DNA from: Octopus vulgaris
Taxonomy: Eukaryota
DNA length: 64,000 nt
Reading direction: 5' to 3'
Assembly (NCBI GenBank): GCA_951406725.2
Contig: OX597817.1
Span: forward strand, 130,758,001 to 130,822,000
Part shown: positions 1 through 62,035 of the stretch, piece by piece
How the letters are laid out: every line of letters begins with the position of its first letter
Numbering within the stretch: position 1 is the stretch's first letter
Translations under genes and position numbers: made by a program
The notes under the pieces: model-generated
Told to the model about the DNA's origin: nothing
Databases searched by the model: none
The model's input: the letters and a program-made list of their open reading frames with translations, nothing else

Positions 1-3000
1 AACTAAAATAGTTAACCAACCCCTGGCCGAATACAAAGGTACCCGTGACTATGCCTCTCACACGCGTTTTCCATACTGTTTCTTTTAGTATGGCTACTAC
101 GCAGAAAAAGCAAGCCTTCCTTTCCCTGTTAAAGGAAGGAGGCGGCACAATCTCGATGATAGACTCAGCTGATAGCTGTACTCTTCCCATCGGTGACAAC
201 AGTTGTTCTGTGAAAGCTATCAGTCCCGTTAATTCCGGACATTCTACAAATGCGTGCAAGACGGTTTTCTTGTCCCGCCCGCACTTCGGACATGTCGGCG
301 AGACGGCACTTCCGTGCCTTGAGTTTATTACGAACAGGTAATGCCACACGGAAGCACTGCCAATCCAGGGATTTCTGGTAATTATCCAGGTACCCCGGCC
401 CGAAAGTTCTCCTGAACAAGTCGATCAACTGATTTTCATCGTAGCCCAGAGTATCCCCCAAGGTGTATTCGGACATAATTTCCACTAACCCGCTATAAAA
501 ATCCGAGATGGAGCTCCTATTGCCGGCATTGCCCACCCGAGAGAGTAGCTGAAGTGCCTGGCAGCACTCCAATTGCCAGTCCCTCAGCCTAGGTCTCTGC
601 TTGATCCAGTTACCATATCCGGTAAGGACGTTAACTCTGGAAGGTAGAACTGGACGTGCGGTGACCACACCTGCTCTCCATCCAGGTAAAGCCAGAGGTG
701 CCTCAACCTTAACGCGAGTTTTCGGAACCTCAGCCAAGGCATCCCTAGCCCACCCTTTAGCGGTTTTTGGTAGCAGACAGAGCGCTTCACAAGTGGCTTT
801 CCTCATTTCCACAAAAAGCGGAAAAAGATTCTCTCCAACTTGTTCAGCCAAAAATCGGGGCAAGGAACCACGGTCAGACGGTAGGTGATAACCGACGCTA
901 TAAACATCTGCACCACCTCCGCCTTTCCCAGGAAGGACAACGCCCGCCCAGACCAGGTCTGGGTTAGAGCAGTCACCTTGCTGGCCACCTAACTCCAATT
1001 TTTCTCTATCTGGAGGACTGGCCCGAACCAGACTCCGAGCTGTTTAACAGGACCTTCCGTCCAACTCCCCACGACGTTATTGGACGGTATCGGCTTGCCC
1101 CTCCAAGTGCCAAGTTGCAAACCGACCGACTTGTCTTTGATAACCTTTGCTCCTGCCATCGCCTCGTAACTTTTGACAGCCTCTTCCACTGGAAGCTGGC
1201 TCTCATCCGCCATGGTGATGGAGATGTCATCCGCATATGATGACACACCATAGAGAACGCGGTGCGCCTCCTAGTGTCTCCAACATCCGCAAGAATGTTT
1301 CGAGAGCCAACACATATAAAAGCGGAGACAGGGGACACCCCTTACGCACTGAGCGCTCGATTCTGAATGGCTTCGAAAGGAAACCATTCACTTTTACGAC
1401 GGACTCGATGTCGCTGTACAACGCAGCAATCCAATCGCGGAAGGTCGGGCCCAGGCCAGCCTTCTCGAGGACCGCCGCCAAGTACCGATGGTCGACCCTA
1501 TCGAATGCCTTAGACTGGTCTAATTGTATCAGTGCCCCGCGCCAGAAAGCTTCCCCACCCTCTCTAAAGAGTACCGTACAAGGTGGAGATTGTCGTGGAT
1601 CGTCCTGCCCGGGATAGCACACGTTTGCGCTTCCCCTACAAGTCTGTCTATAACCCGCGCCAACCTTTTCGCTAGCACTTTGGCCAAAATCTTTAATTCT
1701 GTGTTCAGCAGAGTTATGGGCTTGAAATTCCCTAATTTATCCCCCTTGCTCGGGTCCTTCCTAATCAACGTCACCACCCCACAGCTCGCAGACTTAGGAA
1801 TTCTCCCATTCTGCTGCCAATTGGCGTAGACGCTGGCCAGCAGGTGTCCGAACAAGTCTGGCATACTTTTGTAAAATTCATAAGGCAGAGCCCCGGCGAC
1901 TTCTCCCCGGGGCATTCGCCCAGTACCTCGATCACTTCCTCGGCTGTAATTGTCCCTTCACAGCACTCCGCCTCCCGTGCCGAGAGACGCGAGCCACCAG
2001 ACAGGAAGTCCCTAAGGGCCTCACCATGATCAAGCACCCCGCCCTGTGAAGCACCTCACACATCTCGTCTTGTCCGTCGACCGAACACCCATTGTCATCA
2101 ACGAGAGACCTAATTGTGACATCGTTGTCACGCTGGGTTTGTACTGTACGGGCCCATCCGGCAACATTAATTCCCTCACGGCCCAATGCGTGCACTTTAG
2201 CCCAAATTCTGCACCCCTTATGTTTGGCTTTGAGGTGACGGTCCAAGGCTGTTGTCGCTGCCAAGACATGTGATGCAGAATCCAATCTCATCGCCTCTTC
2301 TAGGTCCTTAAATAGCTGCCCTTCTATTCTGGCCGTCGAGGAAACAAGCTTGCTTCCATTTCGAGCTCAGACCACGCACATTCAGACACCCAAGATTAAG
2401 TGTAGCCAAAACAAGGAAAAAAATACAAGGGTTCTACTTACCCCTCACTAGTGATGTTAGGGCTGACCTCACAACACATGAGGCAGCACTTTACTCCGCC
2501 TCCGCCTCGCCCTTCTTCAAATATCCTGGAAAGTCCAGGATACTCCTGATGGTCTTTGGACGCCTGACCTTCAGTTGCCTGTAAAGGCCTTCCCATATCC
2601 AGGCACATCTTTATCTTAAGTCCTTGTGCTGTTCAAACAGCGTGGTGGGGTTGTGGTCTATTACAATGTCCTCAATGTATTTGTCTCTAGTGTCGTATTT
2701 TACCAGGGTTTTCTGTTCGTACTCTTTCGTGTTTTCCTTTTTTTCTTTGTGGGACAAGGGGACGGGTTCGTTTCTTTTGTTTTTATGGTGTGGTGCTTCC
2801 TTTTTCGTTTTTTTTTGCTGTGAACTCCCCCTCAGCCACCTCCATGGTGTCGTCCGGGGGAGTTACATGTTCTGGTGCCACTTTAGAGGGGGTGAGTGTT
2901 TTTGACGTTGTCGGGACTGGTGTAAGCATGGTCTGGGGGTTTGGGTGTCGTGTTTGGGGGCGGGCACCACAGATAGAGGAGTGGGAATTTTTGTTTCTGT

Positions 3001-11603: not shown

Positions 11604-14600
11604 CTCCTAATGTGTGTGGGCAGACCGGTTTTTATCGGGACCTGGAGCACTTTCTAGTGACGTCTAAAACGTTAGTCTTGGTAGGAGACTTCAACACTAT
11701 TCTCGATGCGCGGGTTGATAGTGTAGGCTCGAACGATAGAAAAGGGAATCCTTGCTTCAAGGTTCTACTAGCGAGTTTTAATCTAGTAGACCGTTTTCGA
11801 CTGGATGAGCCGAACGTTCTACAGTGGACGTGGAGTAACAACGACGGCTCACGCAGATCGTATATAGATAGGGTATTTTTTAAGGAACGAGATAGGAATA
11901 GCGTTAGCTGTCCACAATTTTCTGTTGTGCCTTACACGGATCACAAACTTGTGACGTGTGAGGTACAGGTAGATAAATGCCATAGACAGGGTCCCGGATA
12001 CTGGAAAATGAACAAGTCTATTTTGACTTGTGAAGCTTTCCGTACCCGGATTAAGGAATTAGTCCAGAGGGCATTATGTGGCACCATCATTAATAATAGA
12101 TGGTGGATCGCCCTCAAAAGAGCCATCCGTTTGGAGTCCATTAGATTTAGCAAACAGCTAAGTTTAGATAGGACTAGAATAGAGGGCGAATTAGTGAAGA
12201 ACTTAGACGAGGCAATGGAATCTGGCTGTACATCTGGAGTGTTGGCAGCGAGAACGGTCTTGTACCGTCACCTCAACGCCAAGCATGAGGGGTGTAGAGT
12301 CAGAGCTAAGTTACATGCCGGGAAACGAGAAGGTATTAACGTTGCCGGATGGGCCCGTCGTGAGGAGAGTCAGAAGGGCAAAAAGTCCTGTATTAAGTCT
12401 TTAACTGACGAGCAGGGTCGCAAGATCTATGGACAGGAGGAGATGCAGAAGGTCCTTCACCAGCATTTCGCCCGGTTATTTGGGGATGGCGGTCCGCTCG
12501 AGCGAGGGGATGCCTTAAAGGACTTCCTAGCCGGTGGGCCGCGGCTCTCGACACGTGAGGCGGAATGCTGAGAAGGATCGATCTCTCCCGCGGAGGTAAG
12601 AGAGGTTATGGCCGGTTGCGCCGGGGAAAATAACTCTACTTAGTGTAGAGTTTAAGATTTTGGCCAAGGTGTTAGCAAAAATGTTGACGGCTGTCGAGGA
12701 GAAACTTGTCGGGAAGGCACAGACATGTGCAATCTCAGGCAGGTCGATCCAGGACAATCTTCACCTTCTCCGCTACACTATAGACAGGGTCGGGAAATTA
12801 GCCGGCAAAGGAGGAGCATTGGTCCATTTAGACCAAAGTAAAGCGTTCGATAGGGTAGACCATCGATACTTGGCGGCGGTCCTCGTGGCGGCTGTGCTGG
12901 GCCTTGGCTTTTGCGGGTGGATCTCAGCTATGTACAGCGGCATCAAGTCCACAGTCCAGATAAACGGTTACCTAACGGAGCCGTTTTCGATCAAGCGTTC
13001 AGTTCGTCAAGGGTGTCCCTTGTCCCCGCTCCTGTATGTTTTGGCTCTTGAGCCTTTGCTGCGGAAGTTGGGAGGCAACCCTAATGAAATCAGATGCGGT
13101 AAGTCTGTTTCTACCTATGCGGATGACGTCACTCTCATCGTGTCCAACGAAGCACAGCTACCTCGTGTAGAAGGTGCTCTCCGAAGATACGAAGCGGTGG
13201 CAGGGGCAAAAGTTAACAAGGACAAGTCCACCGGTTTGCGCCTCTGCACCTGGAGGAACAAGCCGATATCGTCCAGTGTTGTTGGGCACTGGACAGATGG
13301 TCCTGTTAAATTGCTCGGAGTTTGGTTTGGTTCAGACTCTCAGACGGAGAAGAATTGGAGCGAGGTAGCGAACAAGGTAGAAGCTATAGTACGGAAGTGG
13401 TCCGGAAGGCATCTTTCCTTGAAAGGGAGGGCGGAGGTGGTACAGATGCTTATATCCTCTGTCATCACCTACCGCCTGACCGTCGTGCCTTGCCTCGATT
13501 CGTGGTTAAGCAAGTTGGAATGACTCCTGTTCCGCTTTTTGTGGAGGGGAGGAAAGCCACTTGTGAGACGCTCCGTGTGTTGCCAGGAACCGCTAAAGGG
13601 TGGGCTGGGGATGCCTTGGCTGATGATGCGCAAGCATGCGTTGAGGCTGAGACATCTCTGGTGTCACCTGGAGGGTGATAAGGTGTGGAGTCCGCTGGCA
13701 GAGGAATTCTTCCCGCGACCGGCCTCTATGGAGAGATTTAAACCCGGTTTCATTAAAAGACGTAACCTGACTTTATGGCAGGAGTGCCGACAGGCACTCT
13801 GGCTGATCCACAAGGTGGGCAAGACCGGCAGCGGGAATACCACCTCGGTGTTCTATAGAGGGCTGATAGAGGCAAAAAATGACGACGTCCTAGGAGGGGC
13901 TCTCGGGTTCGATGAGAATCAACTTTCCAACCTGTTTAAGAAGACTTTCAGGCCGGGGTATTTGGACAATTACCAAAAATCGCTGACCTGGCAGTGCTAT
14001 AGTAATGCATTACCCATTCGCGATAAGTTATCCAGGCACGGAATGTCAGTGCCACCGACGTGTCCAAGATGAGGGTTGGACGATGAAACCGTTCAACACG
14101 CCTTTGTACAATGTCGGGAGCTGTCAAGCTTGATAAGTTACGTTGAACACGTGTTGTCGCATCTGGGACGAGTACAGCTGTCGGCTGGATCTATGATAAA
14201 GATGATACCGTCAACTGGACTCTCAAAGGAAGGTAAGGCTTGTTTTTACTGTACGGTGGCAGTACTGAAAGAGTGTGTGTGGAGAACCAGAATGGAAGGT
14301 TTAGTGACAGGGTCCTTTGTCTCTGGTCTCGGTTTGTTAAAATACTTCAGATATCATCTGAAGAGCAAGACGGGGTTAGAGAAGAGGAGCCTGCCACAGA
14401 AAGAGTATGTGAAACGTTGGAAGGATGTGATGAGAAAGGTGGGTGTTAGTAACCCAGCTTAATCATCGAAGAAAGGAAAAATTAGTTGCTTGGCCTTATA
14501 GGCTGCCGGGTTCAAAATTCGAAATCGGCACTTCCCATTCCTTTTCATTTTACATATGTTATAATTTCTAATGTCTTTTAAAACAAAAAAAAATAAATAA

Positions 14601-14795
14601 ACGCACTAAAGTTCTCGTTATAAAGGCAAAAGTAAGCCAAGTTTTCGTTTAAAGGCAAAAGTAAGCCAAGTTTTCGTTCGTGTTACATTATAATTAAATT
14701 AAAATTTTTTTTTAAAACTCTCATAACATTCTTTGTAATTGTTTGTCCTGTGATGTCCAATTCTATATAAATTCGCATGATCTTAATAAAGATTT
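11604..14795 (+). mobile_element. Tx1-clade non-LTR retrotransposon copy A: 5'-truncated, ORF2 pseudogene plus 3' UTR ending AATAAAGATTT
   Basis: APE motifs (LVGDFN, SYIDRVF, TDHKLV), RT motifs (LDQSKAFD, QGCPLSP, YADD), C-terminal CPR..DETVQHAFVQC zinc finger. In-frame stops and an internal deletion at ~12630. Highly similar to copy B. Confidence 0.95.
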
Positions 14796-14815
14796 CATAT
14801 TCAGCTAGCAGGCCT

Positions 14816-14874
14816 CTGCTACTCTAGATCGATGATGGGCAAAGACCCTGAAACATGCGTGTCTCTAGATGCAG
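14816..14874 (+). ncRNA. Type I hammerhead ribozyme motif with degenerate core (UCGAUGA)
   Basis: Stem I CUGC-(UAC bulge)-UCUAGA / UCUAGA-U-GCAG; stem II GGG-CAAAGA-CCC; GAAA at 14850; stem III ACA-UGCG-UGU; GUC triplet 14861-14863. Confidence 0.75.
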
Positions 14875-15705
14875 GCCTAGCTGTTGGGGGTATTTGTCTC
14901 CCCTTCGTAAATATATAAGGACACAGGAAATGTGTCGAGGTCGACAGGAAGCGTCGGTGTTTCATAGGGCTAAACAGCGGTGGTGTAGTTCCCTTACTGT
15001 TACTTTAAGTTGACAGTATACAACCACACTCCTCCCTCTCTCTCTCTCTCTATATATATATGGTGCAATGATGGTGTAATTTGATTGTTCATTTTGAATC
15101 GATAGAAGGTGTTTTTTTCTAATATTTCATGTATAAGCATGTATATATAGTGACATTGAAGGACACATCTTTCGATTTACAATCTGATATAGTAGAACAT
15201 TTAGTATATGTCTGTATATGTATATATATATGTGTGTATGTGTATATATATGTATTGCATGTTATATACATTATAATATTTTTATAATTTACTTCATCTT
15301 TACTTTTTAATTGTCACTTTAATTTTAACTTTCCTATGATATAAAATTTCAAGATGGTGTAATTTAGTTGTTCATTTTGAACCGATAAAAGTTTTTTTTT
15401 CAAATATTTCATGTATAAGCGTGTATATGTATATAGTGGTATAAATATCAACACAATTTTTCCCCTTCCTCCCTTATTTTTCTTTTTCTTTTTTTGTCTC
15501 TCTCCCCTTCTCCAAACACACAGACACACGCACACACACACGCACACACACACACAAACACACACGGACACACACACAGACACACACACACAGACACACA
15601 CACACACACACACACACATCCACAAAACGATCATAAAAAGTGGAAAGAATTCTTAAACCCCAAAAAGCATTTGACCATTCTCACAATGATAAAAGGAAAT
15701 ATAAT

Positions 15706-16946: not shown

Positions 16947-16996
<50 letters not shown>

Positions 16997-16997
<1 letters not shown>

Positions 16998-17416
16998 TTA
17001 TCGCCGTACTAATATGGCAATCTTATAAAAATAAGAAAAAAGCTGTCCGCTTATTAGCTCCATGAGGCCATCGCCTTAAGTTAGCTATTCGATACACAAA
17101 CTGTATCCATATAACCTTCGAACAAGGGAGGTCAGTCGCTCCACACTCCTTGACCGACAGCTACAGTTTGTGTATCGAATAGCTAACTTAAGGCGATGGC
17201 CTCATGGAGCTAATAAGCGGACAGCTTTTTCTTATTTTTATAAGAATGCCATATTAGTATGGCGATAACTATTAATTTCCAGGAACGCTGCCGTAATCTC
17301 TTTTAGAGAGACTTAGTAATTTTAATATTTCTATTATTGAAAACAAGTGGATGTATTCCACAGAAACTAGGTAAATAAAACCTTCGAACAGAGATAGTCA
17401 GAAGCGACACCTACTG
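16997..17416 (+). mobile_element. HHR retrozyme-like element, 5' portion with inverted 5' segment (host of Tx1 copy B)
   Basis: 16997-17105 is an inverted repeat of 17162-17270. 17162-17337 repeats at 22884-23060. Flanked by (TA)n. Confidence 0.85.
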
Positions 17417-17634
17417 ATTTTTCCTTGGATTACGTCGGATTATTTTACGCTGTAAGCTGTTATGTTAGTTCGTTCTGTTCTGGATTTACACGTACAGTTT
17501 TTGGATTATTAACTTGTGGAACAAAGTAATTTTCACCCTTCGGGGTAGAAAATTTCTTTTTATATATGAACTATTAACTCAGTGTGGAATTAACTTTTAT
17601 CTTGTCTCTTGTGACAAGTCACTTGCATTTTAAT

Positions 17635-19126
17635 ATGGATCTTGACTTAACGTCAAATTCTGATTTTCCCGAGATGGGAGAAGTTATAAATAATGGAAAG
17701 CAAAAGGATACAAAGGAGAAACAAAGTTTTTCGGAAGCCGTTGGAGGCAATGTTATAGAACTGGAAGTAGCAATGGGGGATCTCTTCAAGTTCAGAAAGT
17801 TCATACAAAGGAATGGAGAAGAAACGAGAATAATACCGCCCCCTGACACCTTACAAGCAATCCGTGAGAAGACGGTAATTTATAAGGTATATAATATTAA
17901 GGAAAAAAAGATTGCAGATGTAAAAAATGAATTGGTAGAACGGTGCATGGCACCAATTTGGAACAAGGTTCGCTATGTTGGCCGAGGAGTGAGAAGCGCT
18001 GCTATTGAAGCGCATTTCGAGTCGGCTAGCATAGCGAAGGAAATTTCAACTCAAACGTTGAAGAGTGCAGACATCCTGTTGCTGCCCACGTACTTAGGGC
18101 GCAGAACAGCTAAGGTAACAATAGAGGATATACCAACAGGTTACGATGTAATGTGGGCAGCAACAGCGGTCGTATTCGACGTAGAAGAGAAATTAAACAT
18201 TTTAAACATGAGGATGAAAGAGGCAAAATTTTGGAAAGGTCAGCAGCTTGAAATGATCGTTCAAGCTGACAATGCAACGCTGGAGAGTTTGCCAGACAGG
18301 GTCTTCGAGGGGGATGGACACACTATGCGGGTATCGGTGGAGGGACGTAGGCCCAGATGTTTCAAATGTGGGCAGAAGGGTCACGTCCGCTCAGAGTGCA
18401 AAAAAGAAAAAACCCGTTAATGCCCCCATTCAAACCGCTGTGGAGAACAAAGCAGACATCACAGCAACAACAAAAGAGAATACCCGGAAAAAGCAAAATG
18501 AAAGTCAAAAGGAGGAAAAGAAAATGAATGGAAAACAAAACGAAAACGAAAACGAGGGGGAAAATAATTTATCAAATGGAAAAGAACTGGAAGTAATGGA
18601 ATATACGACTGTAACCAACAAAAGGAAGAAATCCAATACCCCGGACTCCCCACCCCAAACAAAAAGAAAAACAAACGCAGAAGAACAACACAAAAAAATT
18701 ATCCAATCCCACCCCGCTGGCACTACTTTTGTAGGCCAGCATTTCATTAAACCCCAGCCCCCAACTTTAAAAGAATTAAAAAAAACCGATAGGTGCATTG
18801 CTTATAACACAAAAAACGAGAGAGTAGTTTGGTACATAAAAGCGAAACCAAACATAAAATGTTTCAAATCATCGGAAAAAAACCCGGATTGGAGGTATGC
18901 GAAGGTTGGAGAGGAGGAATGGAAGGAGAGACTCTTCCAACTACACGTGAGGGACAACCTGATTAAAGATGTCACACAAGAGGTGATAGCTGGAAAATTG
19001 AATATTAGCCCGGCAGCCACTCCATCCCAGAGCCCGGTGGCAACGCCGGTTAAATGCCCAGCAACAACGGAGAGTGTGGGGGAGGCAGGCAGACAAAAGC
19101 TGCCATGCTCCCTCTCACAACCGTAA
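17635..19126 (+). pseudogene. Tx1 ORF1 (gag-like, CCHC zinc knuckle), split by a +1 frameshift at ~18410
   Basis: ORF 17584-18420 (first ATG MDLDL at 17635) contains CFKCGQKGHVRSEC. Continuation in ORF 18272-19126 ends LPCSLSQP*, homologous to copy C. Confidence 0.85.
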
Positions 19127-19150
19127 GTAACAAACTTTCTTCATTCATCG

Positions 19151-22100
19151 ATGATTAAGTTGGGCTGTATAAATGTGCGTGGAATGGGGTCGAAATGGAA
19201 ACAGGCTTGCTTGCTGGACGACCTCAGGACACACAGAATAGATGTAGCCATTGTCACCGAGTCCAAAATGAGAGGAACCCAAGCGTTCTCGCATCTTCTC
19301 AATGGTTACGAGAAATTTATTTCTCCTAGCCGAGGAGGAAGTGCAGGCGTGACAGTCCTTATCAGGAAGAACTTGGACTTACAGGTAAGTACTGTCTTTA
19401 TGGACCCAGAAGGTAGGCTGGTTGTCCTCGATGTAACTCACGTGAGTAAGCAGTCCTTCAGGTTGGTAGCTGTTTATGCTCCTAATGAGGGTAGGCAGAC
19501 TGGTTTTTATCGGAACTTGGAGCACTTTTTAGTGACGTCTAAAACGGTAGTATTGGTAGGGGATTTCAACACTATCATCGATGCGCGGATAGATAGTGTG
19601 GGCTCGTCTGATAGAAGGGAGAAATTCTTGCCTCAAGGGTCTACTGACGAGCTTTAATCTAGTAGATCGGTTTCGAATGGATGAGCCGAGCATTCCACAG
19701 TGGACGTGGAGTAACAATGACGGCTCACGCAGATCGTATATAGATAGGGTATTTGTTAAAGAACGAGATAGGAATAGCATTAGCTGTCCACAATTTTGTA
19801 TTGTGCCTTACACGGATCACAAATTAGTGACGTGTGAGGTACATGTAGATAAATGCCATAAACAGGGACCCGGATACTGGAAAATGAACAAGTCTATTTT
19901 GGCTTGTGAAGCTTTCCGTAACCGGATTATGGAATTAGTCCAGAGGGCATTATGTGGCACCATCATTAATAATAGATGGTGGATCGCCCTCAAAAGAGCC
20001 ATCCGTTTGGAGTCCACTAGATTTAGCAACCAGCTAAGTTTAGATAGGTCTAGAATAGAGGGCGATTTAGTTAAGAACTTAGACGAGGCAATGGGATCTG
20101 GCTGTGCATCTAGAGTGTTAGCAGAGAGAACGATCTTGTACCGTCACCTCAATGCCAAGCATGAAGGATGTAGAGTCAGAGCTAAGCTACGTGCAGTGAA
20201 ACGAGAAGGTATTAATGATGCCGGATGGGCACGTCATGTGGAGAGTCAGAAGGGCAAAAAGTCCTCTACTAAGTCTTTAACTGACGAACAGGGACGCAAA
20301 ATCTATGGACAGGAGGAGATACAGAAGGTCTTTCAACAGCATTTCGCTCGGTTGTTTGGGGAGGGCGATCCACTCGAGCGAGGAGAGGACTTACAGAACT
20401 TCCTAGCTGGTGGGCCTCGGCTCTTGCCACGCAGAGCGGAACGCTGTGAAGGACCGATTACTCCTGCGGAGGTAAGAGGGGTTTTGGCTGAATGCGCCCG
20501 GGAAAAGTCGCCGGGACTGGATGGTCTGCCCTATGAGTTTTATTGTTGTATGCCGGACTTGTTCGGGGACATACTGGCAAGCGTCTACGCAAACTGGCAA
20601 CAGAATGGGAGGATTCCCAGTTCTGTGAGCCGGGGAGTTGTGACGCTGATCCAGAAAGACCCGAGCAAGGGGGATAATATTAGTAATTATAGGCCCATAA
20701 CTCTACTTAATGTAGAGTTAAAGATTTTGGCCAAGGTGTTAGCAGAAAAGTTGAAGGTCGTCATGGAAAAACTTGTGGGAAAGGCACAGACTTGTGCAAT
20801 CCCAGGCAGGTCGATCGAAGATAATCTTCACCTTCTACGCTACACTATAGACAGGGTTGGGCAATTAGCCGGCAAAGTAAAGCATTTGATAGGGTAGATC
20901 ATCAGTACCTGGCGACGGTTCTCGAAGCGGCTGGGCTAGGCCCTGACTTTCGCGGGTGGATATCAGCTATGTACAGCGGTATCAAGTCCACAGTCCACAT
21001 AAACGGTTACTTAACGGAACCGTTTTCGATTAAGCGTTCAGTTCGTCAAGGATGTCCCTTGTCCCCTCTCCTGTACGTTTTGGCTCTTGAGCCATTGCTG
21101 CGGGAGTTGGAGACGGTGAGATGCAATCCTAATGAAATCGGATGCGGTAAGTCTGTTTCTGCGTATGCGGATGACGTCACCTTCATCGTGTCCAACGAAG
21201 CACAACTAACTCGTGTAGAAGGTGCTCTCCGAAGATACGAAGCGGTGGCTGGGGCAAAAGTTAGCAAGGACAAGTCCACTGGTTTGCGCCTCGGCACCTG
21301 GAGGAACAAGCCGATATCGTCCAGTGTTGTTGGACACTGGACAGATGGTCCTGTTAAATTGCTTGGAGTTTGGTTTGGTTCAGACTCCCAGACGGAGAAA
21401 AATTGGAGCGAGGTAGTGACCAAGGTAGGAGCCATAGTTCGGGAGTGGTCCGGAAGGCATCTTTCCTTGAAAGGGAGGGCGGAGGTGGAACAGGTGTTTA
21501 TAGCATCTGTAATCACCTATCGCCTGACTGTCGTGCCTTGCCCCGATTTGTGGCTAAGCAAGTTGGATCGACTCCTTTTCCGCTTTTTGTGGAAGGGAGG
21601 AAAGCCACTTGTAAGGCGCTCCGTGTGTTGCCAGGAACCACTAAAGGGTGGGCTGGGTATACCTTGGTTAATGATGCGCAGGCATGCGCTGAGACTGAGA
21701 CATCTCTGGTTTCACCTGGAAGGTGATAAGGTGTGGAGTCCGCTGGCAGATAATTTCTTCCCGCAACCGGACTCTATGGAGAGATTTAAACCCGGTTTCA
21801 TTAAAAGACGGAATCTGACTTTATGGCAGAAAGAGTGCCGACAGGCACTCTGGCTGATCCACAAGATAGGCAAAGCCGGCTGCGGGAATACCTCCTCGAC
21901 ATTTTATAGAAGGATGGTAGAGGCAAAAAATGACGACATCCTAAGAGGGACTCTGGGGTTCGATGAGGATCAACTATCCGACCTGTTTAAGAAGACTTTC
22001 AAGCCGGGGTATTTGGACAATTACCAAAAATCCCTGACTTGGCAGTGCTATAGGAATGCTCTACCTGTTCGCGATAAGTTATATAGGCATGGAATGTCAG

Positions 22101-22520
22101 TGCCACCGACATGTCCAAGATGTAGGTTGGACGATGAAACCGTCCAGCACGCTTTTGTACATTGTCAGGAGCTCTCAGGCTTAATAAGTTACGTAGAACA
22201 CGTCTTGTCGCATCTGGGACGAGTACAGCTATCGGCTGGTTCTATAATGAAGATGATACCGCCAGCTGGACTCTCAAAGGAAGGTGAGGCTTGTTTTCAC
22301 TGTACGGTGGCAGTACTGAAAGAGTGTGTGTGGAGAACTAGATTGGAAGGTTTGGTGTGAGGATCCTTTGTCTCTGGATATGGTATGTTAAAATACTTCA
22401 GATACCATCTAAAGAGCAAGATGGATTTAGAGAAGAGGAACCTGACACAGAAAAAGTATGTGAATCGATGGAAGGATGTGATAAAAAAGGTGGGTGTGAG
22501 TAACCCTGCTTGGTCATCAT
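19151..22520 (+). pseudogene. Tx1 ORF2 (APE endonuclease, reverse transcriptase, CCHC finger), disrupted
   Basis: MIKLGCINVRG, VYAPN, VGDFN, SPGLDGLPYEFY, YADD, CPRC..ETVQHAFVHC. Frameshift near 19615, 28-bp deletion at ~20876, premature stop at 22358-22360. Confidence 0.92.
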
Positions 22521-22758
22521 GAAGGGAGAAAATAGTCTCTGGGCTCTTAGGCTGTCGGGTAAGAATCCTGACTGTGATATACCTAGCTGGCCAAAATCAT
22601 TTTTAATTTAAAAAAAAAAGGAGAAAAGTAAAGTCTAGTATCATAATCAATAATCAACATATGTAAATATCAAACGAACAACGTAAACTTTTTGTAATTA
22701 TGTTTTGTATTGTAATGTACTATCTCTGTAAGATTTTTATAATCATAATAAAGATTTT

Positions 22759-23060
22759 AGAAGCGACACCTACTGGGTCTGACTACGCTGCATTGACAAA
22801 GGGCAAATACCCTGAAACGCGTCTGTAGCTGTCGGTCAAGTAGTGTGGAGCGACTGACCTCCCTTGTTCGAAGGTTATATGGATACAGTTTGTGTATCGA
22901 ATAGCTAACTTAAGGCGATGGCCTCATGGAGCTAATAAGCGGACAGCTTTTTTCTTATTTTTATAAGAATGCCATATTAGTATGGCGATAACTATTAATT
23001 TCCAGGAACGCTGCCGTAATCTCTTTTAGAGAGACTTAGTAATTTTAATATTTCTATTAT
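22759..23060 (+). mobile_element. HHR retrozyme-like element, 3' portion (monomer ~363 nt once the Tx1 insertion is removed)
   Basis: Continues the 17162-17416 unit, contains the HHR, repeats 17162-17337 at 22884-23060 and ends in (TA)n. Confidence 0.85.
22779..22835 (+). ncRNA. Type I hammerhead ribozyme, U3-A8 core variant (UUGACAA)
   Basis: Stem I CUGAC-(UAC)-GCUGCA / UGUAGC-U-GUCGG; stem II AGGG-CAAAUA-CCCU; GAAA at 22814; minimal palindromic stem III ACGCGU; predicted cleavage after C22823. Confidence 0.88.
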
Positions 23061-26275: not shown

Positions 26276-26328
26276 TATCACTGACGAAGGGAGGGTTCTT
26301 AAGAACTAACCCTGAAATCGGTCCGATA
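26276..26328 (+). ncRNA. Type I hammerhead motif
   Basis: uauca-CUGACGA-AGGG..CCCU-GAAA-UCG-GUC-cgaua; one mismatch at the base of stem I. Confidence 0.7.
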
Positions 26329-28531: not shown

Positions 28532-28624
28532 TGTTGCTACACATCGCTGGTCACATTGCGCATTGTTTTAGCCTTCAAATGACACCGCCCCGCTGGCTAA
28601 GCGAGTAGGCCAATATATATATAT

Positions 28625-29844
28625 ATTATTTTTATTTTATCGCAATTTGATTTGTTTACATATTTCTCGATAAATTATGAGCGCTAGACGATATACCAGA
28701 AATCCCTAGTTTTGTCGGGACGTTCGGAGTCTGCGCAGTGATATGATTAGTTAGAGAGAGTAAATCATTAGAAGCACATGCTTCTAGTGAGTTAGGATCT
28801 CAGAAAAACAGGGCTCTCACTGACGAATTCTCCCTGAGCAAATAAATTATCTTTATTGCTGAAAAGAAAGAAACTGCAGTCTGAGAATAACCGAGTTAGT
28901 AAATGTTTTTATCTTCATTTCACTTAATTTATCAAGCTTCTGTGTTCCTAGCACATATTTCGCCTTAATGTACTGATATATGGAAAATATATGGCTTGTG
29001 TTAGTAATACCAGCGATTATAATTATTTTTATTTTATCGCAATTTGATTTGTTTACATATTTCTCGATAAATTATGAGCGCTAGACGATATACCAGAAAT
29101 CCCTAGTTTTGTCGGGACGTTCGGAGTCTGCGCAGTGATATGATTAGTTAGAGAGAGTAAATCATTAGAAGCACATGCTTCTAGTGAGTTAGGATCTCAG
29201 AAAAACAGGGCTCTCACTGACGAATTCTCCCTGAGCAAATAAATTATCGTTATTGCTGAAAAGAAAGAAACTGCAGTCTGAGAATAACCGAGTTAGTAAA
29301 TGTTTTTATCTTCATTTCACTTAATTTATCAAGCTTCTGTGTTCCTAGCACATATTTCGCCTTAATGTACTGATATATGGAAAATATATGGCTTGTGTTA
29401 GTAATACCAGCGATTATAATTATTTTTATTTTATCGCAATTTGATTTGTTTACATATTTCTCGATAAATTATGAGCGCTAGACGATATACCAGAAATCCC
29501 TAGTTTTGTCGGGACGTTCGGAGTCTGCGCAGTGATATGATTAGTTAGAGAGAGTAAATCATTAGAAGCACATGCTTCTAGTGAGTTAGGATCTCAGAAA
29601 AACAGGGCTCTCACTGACGAATTCTCCCTGAGCAAATAAATTATCGTTATTGCTGAAAAGAAAGAAACTGCAGTCTGAGAATAACCGAGTTAGTAAATGT
29701 TTTTATCTTCATTTCACTTAATTTATCAAGCTTCTGTGTTCCTAGCACATATTTCGCCTTAATGTACTGATATATGGAAAATATATGGCTTGTGTTAGTA
29801 ATACCAGCGATTATAATTATTTTTATTTTATCGCAATTTGATTT

Positions 29845-29848
<4 letters not shown>
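28625..29848 (+). mobile_element. Retrozyme-like tandem array: three 397-bp monomers plus ~33 bp, one HHR per monomer
   Basis: Units start at 28625, 29022, 29419 and 29816; CUGACGA cores at 28820, 29217 and 29614; flanked by (TA)n. Confidence 0.92.
28815..28886 (+). ncRNA. Type I hammerhead ribozyme (further copies at 29212-29283 and 29609-29680)
   Basis: UCUCA-CUGACGA-long stem II (uucu/agaa; agcaaauaa/uuauugcu)-GAAA-CUGCA-GUC-UGAGA; palindromic ACUGCAGU stem III; predicted cleavage after C28881. Confidence 0.85.
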
Positions 29849-29896
<48 letters not shown>

Positions 29897-35810: not shown

Positions 35811-36339
35811 AATGTAGAATTATTATCTTTTTTCTGTTAAATATAGTTTTTCTTTGCATTCTGTTTTCTTCATATGAATATAATTTATCATCTCACAATT
35901 CACTAATTTTTAGAGCAAAGCTGAAAAAAAATGAAAACTTTATTGGTTTTTGAAAAGTTTTGATAAAATAATATATTAAAAAAAAAAGGTTCATTTTACA
36001 GTTAAGAATAACATGTAAACTGTTTTCAATAGAATTAGCATAAAATAGATGTTGAAGACATAAATACACTATTAACTGTATTGACTGAATATAAGCAATG
36101 GTGAAAAGTTTTGCAATAAGACGGAATAGAAATATTTTGTGAAGGATATTTCTACAGATGTTCTATAGAAATTATAGCCATCAATGAGGTTTTGCTACAT
36201 CATTTTGTATTGAGATGTCAGATGTAAACAAACAATGAGATAGAAGACAAAAACATCTGTTGTTTCTTCCCCATGGTTGTTTACATCTAACGTCTCGAAA
36301 AAAATAGTGCTGGCTTCTGTAGAAATAACCTTAACAAAG

Positions 36340-36440
36340 TAAAGTATACTAGCCATCTCAATATGGCTAACCACTAAGGGTGGGTGTTACTGTAGCTTTT
36401 AGCCCCGATGTGGGTGTTACTGTAGCTTTTAGCCCCGATG
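36340..36440 (-). mobile_element. Fragment of the HHR retrozyme-like family, forming the 3' flank of Tx1 copy C; includes a 30-bp tandem duplication
   Basis: Minus strand catcggggctaaaagc and hairpin gccatattgagatggc match catggagctaataagc (22925) and gccatattagtatggc (22971). Confidence 0.7.
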
Positions 36441-39748: not shown

Positions 39749-40069
39749 GGGGTCCCTAGACGAGTCAAAACACCGGTTTTCGATGAAGGGAGACCTGTTT
39801 GCAAATATTTATTTAATGTTTTTTCCCAGTAACTTCCGTCACTGATTTCGAAAAACTGTCTGCAAGCAATAATAAATCTCTGAACGAGATGTAAACAGTA
39901 ACCTCTCGACAACGTAAATATTGATTAAGCTGGAGATAAAACTGTTATTAATCTGACAAACGCTGTAAATCTCTCATCATCTCAATACAATCCACACAAT
40001 TATCATACACAATATTTATTAACTTGGAAAGCTCATCAAAAGATGGGGTTTAATATAATCACACCGAGT

Positions 40070-41814: not shown

Positions 41815-42420
41815 TCAGTAACACCCACTCTTTGTGGTTAGCCATATTGAGATGGCTATTATACTTTACATTGTCAAGCGGTTACTGTTTACATCTCGCT
41901 CAGAGATTTATTATTGTTGTAAGAATATTTTTGTTAAATTTGAAAGGATTGTTTGGCGTCTGAAAGTATGAAGTTTACAAAAAGAAAAACAAGTTTTGAT
42001 TCAAGACATTCCTTTTATAAAATTAAGCCTATAGAATTGTTTTGAAACGCTATCGGAATCTTTCAGTACACAGAAGCAACCTCTTGAGAAGCTGACTCAC
42101 ACTTTGTGGTTAGCCATATTGAGATGGCTATTATACACTTTACATTCTTACAACATTTTCTCAAGTAAAAGTAAATCCATTTTATTTTCTCTATTTTTTT
42201 GTGAAATTGTGTCGTTCTGAGAAAATTGCTTATTTGTGAATTCAGGAAACTCCTTCAGGTTTGTGACTCACCCTCACTTATATTGTTATCATTATTTTCT
42301 GTTGTTTTATTCTTTGATAGATTTGACCACTTATCTATGGGCAACATACTTTGTATTTAATGATATTAAAATATGAAAATTACAGTTACATATTTTGAGC
42401 AGAAGGAGATGAAGATCTCA
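41815..42420. mobile_element. Composite relic: retrozyme-family fragments (41815-41920, 42100-42145) interleaved with hAT pieces in both orientations
   Basis: gccatattgagatggc hairpin occurs twice. 41866-41915 matches the reverse complement of 39860-39915. 41945-42090 resembles 3238-3380 and 42150-42360 is inverted relative to 3015-3200. Confidence 0.6.
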
Positions 42421-58105: not shown

Positions 58106-58216
<111 letters not shown>

Positions 58217-58379
58217 GAAATATGTTACAAAAGGAAAATAGAATCTACACGTAGAAATGTAAGGGGAAAGTAGGAAGAATTATAAGCGAAAATGCATATT
58301 GGAAATAAAAACAAGTAAAGGCATTTTACGAAAAGTAACGATAGATATATACAATTAGATGAACTGAGGTAGGAATAAA

Positions 58380-60022
58380 AGTAATAAAAGTCATTATTCT
58401 GAATTGTTAAAGAGATTCAAAAGCATACCGGTTTCATGAATTTTCTAATCATTGGTTTGAGTGCACATCGATTAATGAACGGTCTCAGGTCTATTAGTCC
58501 CTGAGTAAAGCGATTATGTGTAAGGGAGGTAAGTCGTTCTGGATTTGGTGCAATTAGGGTAGATATAGATCTGTAATGTGAATGGTGTATGGGATGTATG
58601 GATGTTAGTAGTATTAATTGAAAGGTTAGTAGTGTTCTGTATTATGTTATGTGTTCATATTGAGTTGTGGAAGATATTTATTGATGAAAGTTGCCTCTTC
58701 ATTCTTTGTTTGTACTGAGGTGTTCTCTGAACATTGATAGAAGGAGAAAATTAGGAAATTAGGATTAAGATTCCTAGGACACCTGTATCTGTCTGTATTG
58801 TTGGTGGCGGATATGTTCTTTGTGGAGAGTGGTTCTTCGATGTAGTGATATTCCTGTTTGGCCAATATAATTATGACCACTCACTAAGCATGTAATGGCA
58901 TAGACAAAATTTTCCGAGGCACAGGTGAAATTTGATTTGATCTTAAATATTTTAACTTGTTTAAAGTGGAATTCTGAATCCTCCAAAAGGTGGGGGCATG
59001 TTCCACACATAGGACGACCACATTTTTTCACTTTTGGTTCTGTTGTTAATGGATATAGTCTTGAACTGGTTAATATTTTTTCAATGATTTGGGTTGCAGT
59101 CTGCTCTTGATTATTTTGTGTGAGCCTAAAATTTTGTTCATTGTTTTATGTCCTGTGAGGATAGGAAGACTTTGGATGATAATGTTAACGGCTTCGTTGT
59201 TTTTAGGGTTATGTGTGGAGATGTATGTGAGTATTTTTAAGTCTGATGTAGTATTTCGGTTGACGTCCCTTAATGTTCGTATATCTCTTTCCATAAATCG
59301 TTTAATGCCATCATTTATTAAAGATATATTAAAGATATTGGGTAATGTCTTTTGAGAAGTATTATCTGAGTTCAAGGAGTCTTTGTTCACGAGAATAGGT
59401 GTCCGAAACTATGGTACAGATTCTTTTCGCTAGATTATAAGGTATATTAATTTTGATGTGTTTGGGTAGCATGAGTTGAATAATATGTATTGTTTATAAT
59501 CTGTGGGTTTAGAGGAGATGTCTGTTTCGATGTGGTTATTGACCATTTTGATTAGGATTTCAAGAAAAGAGAGTTGTTTATTGCTGTGCTCCATGGTGAA
59601 TTGTATGTTGCTATTAATATTGTTAAGCATTATTTTGAAATCGAGGATTTTGTCCATGCTGTCCTTCCAAAGTATAAAGCAATCGTGCAAATTCCTCTTC
59701 CAGTTCTCCCTTAAATAGCAATGAAATAAGGTGCCATATTTTTGTAGTGATGATTGATATATTTTAAGCTCTAGTAACCCATTACAAGGTTCGCAATCAC
59801 TGGAGCAGCTCGGGTTTCCGTTGCAATTCCACATTTTTGTCGATAGTAATCTGTATCGAACATGAAATAGTTGTTCAGTAGTATGAATTAGAGTACTTCG
59901 ATTATGAATCTGTGGTAAATGCGTCCTGGGATCTCTTCTTGGTGTTTTTCTAGCAAGAAAGTAATCGCTTCTATACCATAATCGTGTGGGATATTGTGGT
60001 ACAAATTCACCACATCGAATGA

Positions 60023-61110: not shown

Positions 61111-62035
61111 CTGATACTCATACCCGGAATTTGGAAAAATCTCTGCTCCAAATTAATTGACAATTTTCAAGGATTTGATGGTCTTCATGAATGTATGTAT
61201 GTATAATAGTTAAGAAGGCAAGAAGACAGGTGTATAATACATACAGAGAATAAGTGACGAGAGCAGACCAAGAACCTAAAATTGATTGTCAAATGAAAGG
61301 ATACATAATCTGTGCAAATAAAAGTTGAATATAGGTAATGTATCAGCTGAACTAATGAAAATATACTAAAATAGATGTTCTGATAGCTGCTTAGGTATCA
61401 AACCGTTTATATTAATAATAAAGTGAACATAAAATGAAATAAATTCAGTAGAAAAAAATCCCCAAAAGACTGCTGTATGGACTTTCGTAGTGATACCTCA
61501 TAGACAGGTAAAAACCCTGATTTTTATGAACATGGTATAAATGATTCTGTATCTTTGCAGTGACACATAATTGGAAGATCTTGGTGGGTGTAGCACCTAC
61601 TTTGGGGCTGAAATCCATACCAAACACACACACTGAATGCCATAACACCTGCGAACAGGTGAGGTCATCAACATCCCCTTGTCGGCTTGGCAGATGGTCA
61701 ACAGCGACGCCTGCTGGACTCGGCTACTCCACATTGATAAGGTGGAAATACTCCGAAACCGGTCTGTGGTTGCAAAGCCAGCAAGCGAAAGGTGATGACC
61801 TGTCTGTTGGAAGGTGTTATGGACGCAGAAATGTGGGGCAAAAAGAAAAACTTTCTTTGCTAATGTGCTGAAAAATAGACGCTAAATCGTCTAACCACAT
61901 ATTTTTAGTTTTATTATTACACCACATGTCGAAACGAGGAGAGCAAGCTAACAGAAATTCATAAAATATAGTTATCCCCGTATCTGTTCCGATTTCTGGA
62001 TTAATCCGAAAAGGATTCTTCCTTCATCAACGAGG

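Follow-up and report, generated by a model that had tools for sequence, protein, structure and literature searches.

Covarying stems of an octopus hammerhead repeat as likely parts of a non-coding parasite of Penelope-like elements

The stems of a hammerhead tandem repeat in Octopus vulgaris are best read, with a probability of about 0.65 for the whole chain, as parts of a non-coding parasite of Penelope-like retrotransposons that would be transcribed from an snRNA-type promoter, cleaved by its hammerheads, circularised, and reverse transcribed from internal positions near hairpins H3 and H4. Hosts A and B, the two copies compared in a preliminary description of this DNA, represent two lineages of one tandem repeat with units of 355-366 nt and a type I hammerhead. 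The repeat is a non-LTR retrozyme, and we consider it very probable that this identity holds and that the RNA stems are real. The kind is already known from animal non-LTR retrozymes; the covariation, the mapped 3' ends and the promoter match are what differs here. The window is the whole stretch of 64,000 nucleotides that was analysed (contig OX597817.1 of assembly GCA_951406725.2, positions 130,758,001 to 130,822,000 of the forward strand), and coordinates are counted from its first letter.

Hammerhead repeats in the window and in the genome

The retrozyme copies of the window and the LINEs that adjoin them are as follows.

11604..14796, plus strand: 5'-truncated Tx1-like LINE, ending at the start site of host A, with no host sequence on its 5' side
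14797..15026, plus strand: retrozyme family A copy (host A); its putative start (+1) at 14797 is the LINE junction, and it ends at about +172, which is 3' end site 1, and runs into (TC)n(TA)n
14823..14869, plus strand: type I hammerhead of A, found by pattern; predicted cleavage after 14863, core U3.G8, stem III near-palindromic
16994..17165, minus strand: family B piece covering +1..+172 in inverted orientation, a 5' inversion of the Penelope-like kind
17162..17416, plus strand: direct family B piece (+61..+316), with a PSE-like motif at 17344-17355 and a putative start at 17400
17417..22758, plus strand: full-length L1/Tx1-like LINE B, with a zinc-knuckle ORF1 and a frameshifted APE-RT-zf ORF2
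17400-17416 and 22759-22775, plus strand: 17-bp target duplication of LINE B, flanking 17417..22758
22759..23060, plus strand: family B copy (host B), with 3' end site 2 at 23060, running into (TA)n
22793-22823, plus strand: hammerhead core of host B, U3-A8; cleavage predicted after 22823
39768..39918, minus strand: host sequence of family C on the 5' side of LINE C; its PSE-like ATCAGT is at 39846 and its putative start at 39784
39770-36421, minus strand: LINE C (Tx1-like)
36334..36436, minus strand: 3' piece of family C spanning +104..+176, with a 30-bp duplication; it carries H3 at 36352-36367 and is joined to a LINE that is broken internally
41816..41916, plus strand: family C copy truncated on its 5' side and covering +118..+218; its 3' end is site 2
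42095..42146, plus strand: family C copy truncated on its 5' side and covering +125..+174; its 3' end is site 1

The genome holds thousands of retrozyme copies in several divergent lineages. Exact genome matches numbered 3110 for one C/D pattern and 572 for one B-type pattern, with 0 for reversed controls, and among the fetched loci 186 distinct of 270 hammerhead-anchored copies formed 45 clusters at 90%. Natural tandem monomers measured 366 nt (A), 364 nt (B), 355 nt (C) and 359 nt (D), within the 150-450 bp typical of the tandem repeats of non-LTR retrozymes. Units lie head to tail with no PLE protein match inside them, and arrays without a LINE ("empty" hosts) occur genome-wide, the array at locus L186 comprising 12 partial or full units. 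Identity over +20..+180 was 42-56% between the A, B-type and C/D-type lineages, 70-81% between C and D, and 71% both for B with E and for A with A3. An Rfam search, which the preliminary description had proposed, found no family for the hosts; at E<=1, the window and five tandem loci returned only simple-repeat/inversion noise, and the hammerheads themselves went unrecognised. The C/D pattern had 0 matches in metagenome and viral collections. By title or abstract start, the literature on octopus hammerhead ribozymes showed none on such a family, which may be catalogued elsewhere.

Each unit carries a type I hammerhead with stems I-III, for which self-cleavage is predicted from the sequence. 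The core is C3-G8 in families A and D and U3-A8 in B and C. In family A the core reads CCGAUGA in 37 of 44 copies; the copy in the window is damaged, with a U3.G8 core and two broken H2 pairs. Every family has a palindromic or near-palindromic stem III, and this feature and the core swap together fit an active, dimer-capable ribozyme as described in excerpts of PMC6765202. The earlier observation that stem I keeps its bulge geometry extends to all four families, with a UAC-type bulge 5-6 bp from the core.

Further hammerhead-like motifs were seen in the window. A 397-bp tandem repeated 3.1 times at 28620-29854, with (TA)n on both sides, has by eye one type I hammerhead-like motif per unit with a long stem II and a palindromic stem III, and is probably an unrelated retrozyme family. 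The motif at 61734-61764 (plus strand) is that of an older B-related lineage, E. Those at 26281-26328 (plus strand) and 62030-61981 (minus strand) resemble the 3' ends of other PLE families.

Covariation of the stems 3' of the hammerhead

The preliminary description had proposed, from low-identity copies A and B, one divergent retrozyme family with conserved, covarying RNA modules downstream of the hammerhead. We find a superfamily of this kind, its stems kept across 42-56% identity. The stems of hosts A and B are as follows.

14920..14936, plus strand: hairpin H1 of host A (the +57 hairpin), which covaries
14939..14971, plus strand: hairpin H2 of host A, with an outer stem, a 4x3 internal loop and a 6-bp inner stem
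14977..14985, plus strand: 5' strand of stem P4 of host A; the partner at about +185 is missing from this truncated copy
14997..15016, plus strand: hairpin H3 of family A, equivalent to GCCAU..AUGGC, from the alignment and RNAalifold
22882-22898, 22902-22934, 22970-22987 and 23021-23033, plus strand: hairpins H1, H2, H3 and H4 of host B
22939-22947 with 23010-23017, plus strand: stem P4 of host B

The main alignment comprised the window copies of A and B and 21 hand-picked copies (23 sequences), the picks L200, L211 and L111 having been left out beforehand. From it RNAalifold predicted H2 and H3 unaided, with 94% of cells paired versus 34-50% when slid, and 8 of the 12 H2/H3 pairs had changed on both sides. 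H1 was missed by RNAalifold in this alignment because MAFFT shifted it by two columns; in a short alignment of 11 sequences it was predicted unaided, with 65 of 66 cells paired and both sides changed in four of six pairs.

Covariation was then weighed against a null model that takes account of the tree. This test used 21 copies (the window copies of A and B, near-duplicates, were dropped), a tree from the stem-masked alignment and 5000 null runs; the register was set by hand for D in H2 and for A2 in H3. Branches on which both partners changed amounted to 12.3, against 2.1 +/- 1.4 under the null (0/5000). H1 co-changed well beyond expectation (6.0 versus 0.46; 0/5000), bearing out the compensatory change first noticed between A and B, and so did the inner stem of H2 (5.1 versus 0.89; 1/5000). 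The covariation expected of all the modules was not found in the outer stem of H2 (0.5 versus 0.55; 2245/5000) or in H3 (0.8 versus 0.2; 930/5000), neither of which was significant. Among 420 stem cells, which are not independent, 374 were Watson-Crick, 26 G.U, 9 A.C and 11 other; the excess of G.U over A.C favours the sense strand. Between families that are 42-56% alike, the number, order and spacing of the hairpins are kept, as are the 4x3 internal loop of H2 and the UGG/UAG-RGCU-AA residues.

The positions given in the preliminary description for H1 (14920 and 22882), for the strings at +100 (14963 and 22925) and for the gccatatt hairpin, here H3 (22971, 41841, 42113 and, on the minus strand, 36367), are all exact; the +100 string occurs also at 17203 and a fifth H3 at 17248. 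Two readings of these elements changed. The +100 string is present at both sites, but it is not a single linear module: it consists of the 3' strand of H2, a junction and the 5' strand of P4, which pairs with a strand at about +185 and differs in sequence between families. The shared "cat" at its start is partly coincidence, CAT standing in 1 of 44 A copies and CCT in 37 of 44. The gccatatt hairpin is common as described, but its copies at 36367, 41841 and 42113 belong to a third family, C. H2, host A's own H3 at 14997-15016 and the promoter-like primary sequence had been missed. Likeness of the stems to CAB-box/H-ACA, K-turn or telomerase-template elements was considered and dropped, the needed boxes being absent by eye.

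Fold of the whole monomer

Whole monomers folded as circles share a common predicted layout, with z scores from -4.5 to -6.8 (40 shuffles). A rod of the hammerhead, the bulged stem I and stem P0 leads to a junction with H1, H2, P4/H3, H4 and a fifth hairpin, which carries the PSE-like motif discussed below; in the minimum-energy fold of family D, H1 is replaced by an alternative. The arms of P0 differ between families, yet they beat all 100 shuffles in 12 of 13 copies. Since one arm lies upstream of the next start site, the RNA under selection would be at least monomer-length. Isolated module regions of 120-130 nt mostly folded no better than shuffles (z -2.6 to +0.4), nor did the window copy of A alone (z +0.17 and -0.17), and antisense circles of B and C were nearly as stable as the sense circles.

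No sequencing run with the repeat is on record as RNA. Cyclic contigs of 390 nt were found in three of four runs guessed to be RNA, and a 360-back joint in three of four unlabelled runs; both are compatible with a circle or a tandem repeat alike.

The Tx1-like LINE and its target site

Thirty LINE 3' junctions found by protein search lay in a retrozyme (21), at U2 +1 (3), in tandem LINEs (4) or elsewhere (2). In the reference monomers the retrozyme junction precedes the cleavage site by 57-67 nt. The LINE enters families A, B and C at one site, and U2 at +1. Insertion is site-specific, with a 14-17-bp duplication inside the retrozyme unit. The LINE has an APE endonuclease, an L1-type RT and a zinc-knuckle ORF1, and makes a target duplication; the putative Tx1-like assignment rests on this domain layout and behaviour.

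Some LINE copies carry leaders at their 5' ends (loci L231, L271, L272, L289, L448 and L449/L326). Four copies in U2 genes, possibly from one event, have a 14-nt leader that starts at the insertion site of a C-type retrozyme, and two have a U1 +1..+17 leader away from the U1 promoter. These leaders likely record transcription starts. The same LINE site in three retrozyme families of unlike sequence and in U2 suggests targeting of a promoter complex, not of a fixed sequence.

An account in which the resident LINE mobilises the retrozymes, the hammerhead unit being its functional 3' end or a SINE-like partner, would explain why 21 of 30 LINE 3' ends lie in a retrozyme and why composites of LINE and host without a 5' host exist (window 11604-15026, L181 and L182). 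We regard it as very unlikely, since the LINE enters site-specifically with a 14-17-bp duplication, also into U2, while solo retrozymes have their ends at two different sites, frequently at (TA)n and accompanied by inversions, in the manner that excerpts of PMC8557442 and PMC11167929 describe for PLEs, and a PLE in the same window likewise has two 3' ends at (TA)n. The narrower proposal that the hammerhead belongs to the LINE 3' UTR is ruled out by the 17-bp target duplication and the empty tandem hosts. At L181 the point of inversion falls within the LINE and both ends are retrozyme sites 1 and 2, an anatomy that suggests the LINE hitchhiking on retrozyme copying.

Related LINEs were seen in other settings. 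One subfamily (L281, around 1650-1700) occupies an initiator-like site some 30 nt downstream of a TATA box, and others (L275-L280) form 5.3-kb tandem arrays in non-retrozyme targets. The LINE at 141-2400 (minus strand) is more distant, at 67% to LINE B; its 3' end, just beyond the window, abuts a repeat that looks SINE-like by eye and is not a retrozyme.

A promoter of the snRNA type inside the unit

Because the LINE junction is shared by the retrozymes and U2 +1, the unit was compared with host snRNA promoters. Nine of 18 upstream clusters of U1/U2 matches were chosen by eye as training promoters, and the other nine (LINE ends and pseudogene flanks) were excluded. ATCAGT occurs at -56..-60 in eight of nine U1/U2 promoter types, and ACCTCCCTT, with 0-1 mismatch, at -253..-266 in five of five U1 types. 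Among snRNA genes held out of training, ATCAGT was present in 9 of 10 U5 loci and 4 of 6 U4 loci; of the distal motif there is a poor match in U2, none in U4 and an inverted one in some U5 loci. A 3'-box-like CAGAC/T follows the host snRNA genes (U1, U2, U4 and U5 loci).

Both sites have counterparts in the retrozymes. Counted from the LINE site, PSE-like sites lie at -59, -57, -59 and -58 and DSE-like sites at -267, -266, -263 and -268 in reference monomers A, B, C and D, respectively. The former distances are those of a PSE (about 55-60 bp from the start), with a weaker match in references A and B; the latter fall in the range of a distal element (200-270 bp upstream), at the same distance as in U1. 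By matrix rank each is the best or second-best site of its monomer, the PSE-like site being second-best in A and B and the DSE-like site in A and C; PSE matrix scores >=6 occur at 0.12% of window positions. The DSE-like motifs of hosts A and B are at the following positions.

14895..14905, plus strand: CCTCCC-type DSE-like motif of host A, a weak family A variant, within the internal loop of stem P0
22857-22865, plus strand: DSE-like motif of host B

The CCTCCC motif at +31..+40 and the PSE-like motif at about +240 are the best-conserved primary sequence of the unit, and as they match the host snRNA promoter they are probably read as DNA. Part of the conservation thus looks to be at the DNA level, and the retrozyme is likely transcribed from a built-in snRNA-type Pol II promoter. 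The literature searched, with subscription papers and Repbase reports mostly outside its scope, yielded no paper linking retrozymes to the proximal sequence element.

That two of the best-conserved motifs match snRNA promoters, and that H1-H4 all fall within the 204-210-nt spacer between DSE and PSE, could be taken to mean that the conserved elements are DNA features throughout (promoter or enhancer sites, or quasi-palindromes repaired by template switching), with covariation that needs no RNA function. This is highly improbable. None of the nine snRNA promoters contains a counterpart of H1, of the +100 string or of H3 (3-5 mismatches), so these are not promoter parts; G.U outnumbers A.C by 26 to 9, the hammerhead core covaries, and bulged, multibranch pairings with a range of 250 nt are maintained. 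The filling of the DSE-PSE spacer by H1-H4 may explain the fixed unit length.

Insertion ends and the link to Penelope-like elements

Most insertions end in one of two narrow zones. The 3' end lies at +170-179 or +210-239 in 56 of 72 B, 21 of 21 D, 68 of 74 C and 35 of 37 A insertions, and a microsatellite begins within 16 nt (<=16 nt) after the 3' end in 123 of 204 in all (B 51, D 21, C 36, A 15). Site 1 is immediately 3' of H3, and site 2 immediately 3' of H4, at positions fixed in all four families, and insertions often abut (TA)n. An inverted 5' piece was present at 78 of 150 loci, some of which overlap. The 5' ends are scattered; 13 of 204 fall within -4..+7 of the cleavage site, against about 7 expected, a weak and biased excess. 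A 3'-box as the cause of the 3' ends was considered and rejected, the fit by eye being loose for C and D and lacking for A and B.

This anatomy carries the marks of PLEs, namely partial tandems, an inverted 5'-truncated copy, two 3' ends and (TA)n targets. According to excerpts of PMC8557442, Penelope-like elements form partial tandems, include an inverted copy, may have a tail and favour (TA)n; according to those of PMC11167929, the tail of Anolis Poseidon arises from two RT start sites that are internal and lie in a stem-loop 3' of the hammerhead. Searches for an autonomous partner by GIY-YIG and RT gave one old PLE family, and the 3' regions of 50 loci showed no match to the module profile (H1-H3). 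The window holds a member of that family.

58213-60020, minus strand: old Penelope-like element (RT + GIY-YIG)

In its family, the 3' region has the DSE-like 9-mer of the retrozymes at 23 of 30 loci, a PSE-like stretch and a decayed hammerhead with a palindromic stem III. Its copies have two 3' ends about 50 nt apart, at (TA)n, and a terminal 12-mer like that of family B.

As both fixed 3' ends sit just 3' of H3 and H4, a role of these hairpins in RT recognition, which the preliminary description had raised, is plausible. The stems might instead serve only the compactness and stability of a circular RNA, helping it to evade nucleases or innate sensors and bringing its ends to the ligase, while RT starts in AU-rich unpaired stretches with no recognition of hairpins. 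Published retrozyme circles are all highly self-paired according to excerpts of PMC7229834, stem sequences vary freely between families, and both 3' ends lie in AU-rich stretches to which (TA)n primers could anneal. Compactness alone does not call for the retention, at 42-56% identity, of hairpin number, order and spacing, of the H2 loop and of the UGG/UAG-RGCU-AA residues, or for two end positions fixed relative to H3 and H4 in all four families, and we judge this explanation unlikely.

A proposed cycle

In the preferred reading, a non-coding parasite of Penelope-like elements, the DSE-like (+31..+35) and PSE-like (about +240) motifs would set a start 57-67 nt before the next hammerhead. Pol II would read through tandem units and the hammerheads would cut, probably as dimers given the palindromic stem III. 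The monomer from cleavage to cleavage is predicted to fold into a long rod capped by the junction, and a host ligase would circularise it, as published for other animal retrozymes. Excerpts of PMC7229834 report that RtcB ligates mussel and axolotl retrozyme RNA in vitro; a circularisation signal in the stems, as first suggested, is unsupported, the literature pointing to a tRNA ligase that joins the hammerhead ends. From the insertion anatomy, a Penelope-type RT-GIY-YIG protein would nick (TA)n, begin at about +175 or +220-237 and run round the monomer, giving arrays with variable and often inverted 5' ends. H1 and H2 would most likely be protein-binding parts of the RNP.

A wider version can be offered tentatively, in which the unit would act as a minimal replicon that is coded doubly. 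Read as DNA, the unit would be a complete host U1-type promoter whose DSE-PSE spacing fixes the length of ~360 nt, and as RNA its spacer would be a multibranch domain with two stem-loops recognised by a Penelope-type RT. The Tx1-like LINE would home on the snRNA-type start (U1, U2 and three retrozyme families of unlike sequence), take over the promoter and at times be carried to new (TA)n sites by retrozyme copying, which would make a parasite chain of three levels.

Comparison with known systems

Published accounts, drawn on here in part, treat the transcription of animal retrozymes and the choice of template and start site by a Penelope-type RT as open questions. The superfamily offers compensatory variants that occur naturally, two start positions already mapped and a candidate for the promoter, making both questions directly testable with a 360-nt RNA.

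Animal non-LTR retrozymes, as described in excerpts of PMC7229834 and 10.64898/2026.07.22.740005, are likewise non-coding tandem repeats with a type I hammerhead per unit; mussel units of ~350-390 bp are of the same size, GC is below 50% and the circle is predicted to be self-paired. PLEs co-occur with them and a PLE origin has been proposed. In the parts of these sources consulted, published folds are single-sequence and the repeats are called species-specific, whereas here covariation extends across 42-56% identity, two 3' ends are mapped and a promoter is matched to host snRNA genes. In Xenopus, 24 of 57 retrozyme families match Repbase elements, 21/22 of them PLEs (10.64898/2026.07.22.740005, in part); here, with the 3' regions of 50 loci from one PLE family compared, no sequence link to an autonomous pLTR was found.

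The Penelope-like pLTR or "tail" of Anolis Poseidon is alike in having a hammerhead upstream of two internal RT starts and an AT-rich target, and Penelope-like elements share the partial tandems and the inverted 5'-truncated copy (excerpts of PMC11167929 and PMC8557442). Unlike Poseidon, the retrozymes appear to have no ORF, their two ends are 45-60 nt apart versus 30-40, and the ends follow stem-loops with a UU(N)AG-type loop, where Poseidon has an AC-rich stem-loop (PMC11167929, in part).

The present finding suggests that the snRNA-type promoter of newt satellite 2 is not a one-off. Its motifs are the vertebrate octamer and PSE. That satellite is from a vertebrate, unlike the repeat here, whose motifs are this genome's own and whose promoter activity is putative. 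The two are alike in being hammerhead tandem repeats, of ~330 bp in the newt, for which an internal snRNA-type Pol II promoter was reported (Coats, Zhang & Epstein 1994, as cited in excerpts of PMC2220036).

A LINE that inserts at snRNA-type starts regardless of sequence would represent an unusual targeting mode. The target site of Keno lies inside U2; unlike Keno, the LINE here inserts at U2 +1 and at the equivalent site in three retrozyme families that differ in sequence. In excerpts of the Tx1/snRNA literature on Keno, Utopia, Dada and Tx1-Mar (PMC4494074, PMC4640811), insertion at snRNA starts or into retrozymes is not described. The LINE resembles the target-specific Tx1-clade LINEs of these sources (Keno in U2, Tx1L in Tx1D and Tx1-Mar in Mariner), which are likewise APE-type and L1-like, make target duplications and enter U2 or another mobile element.
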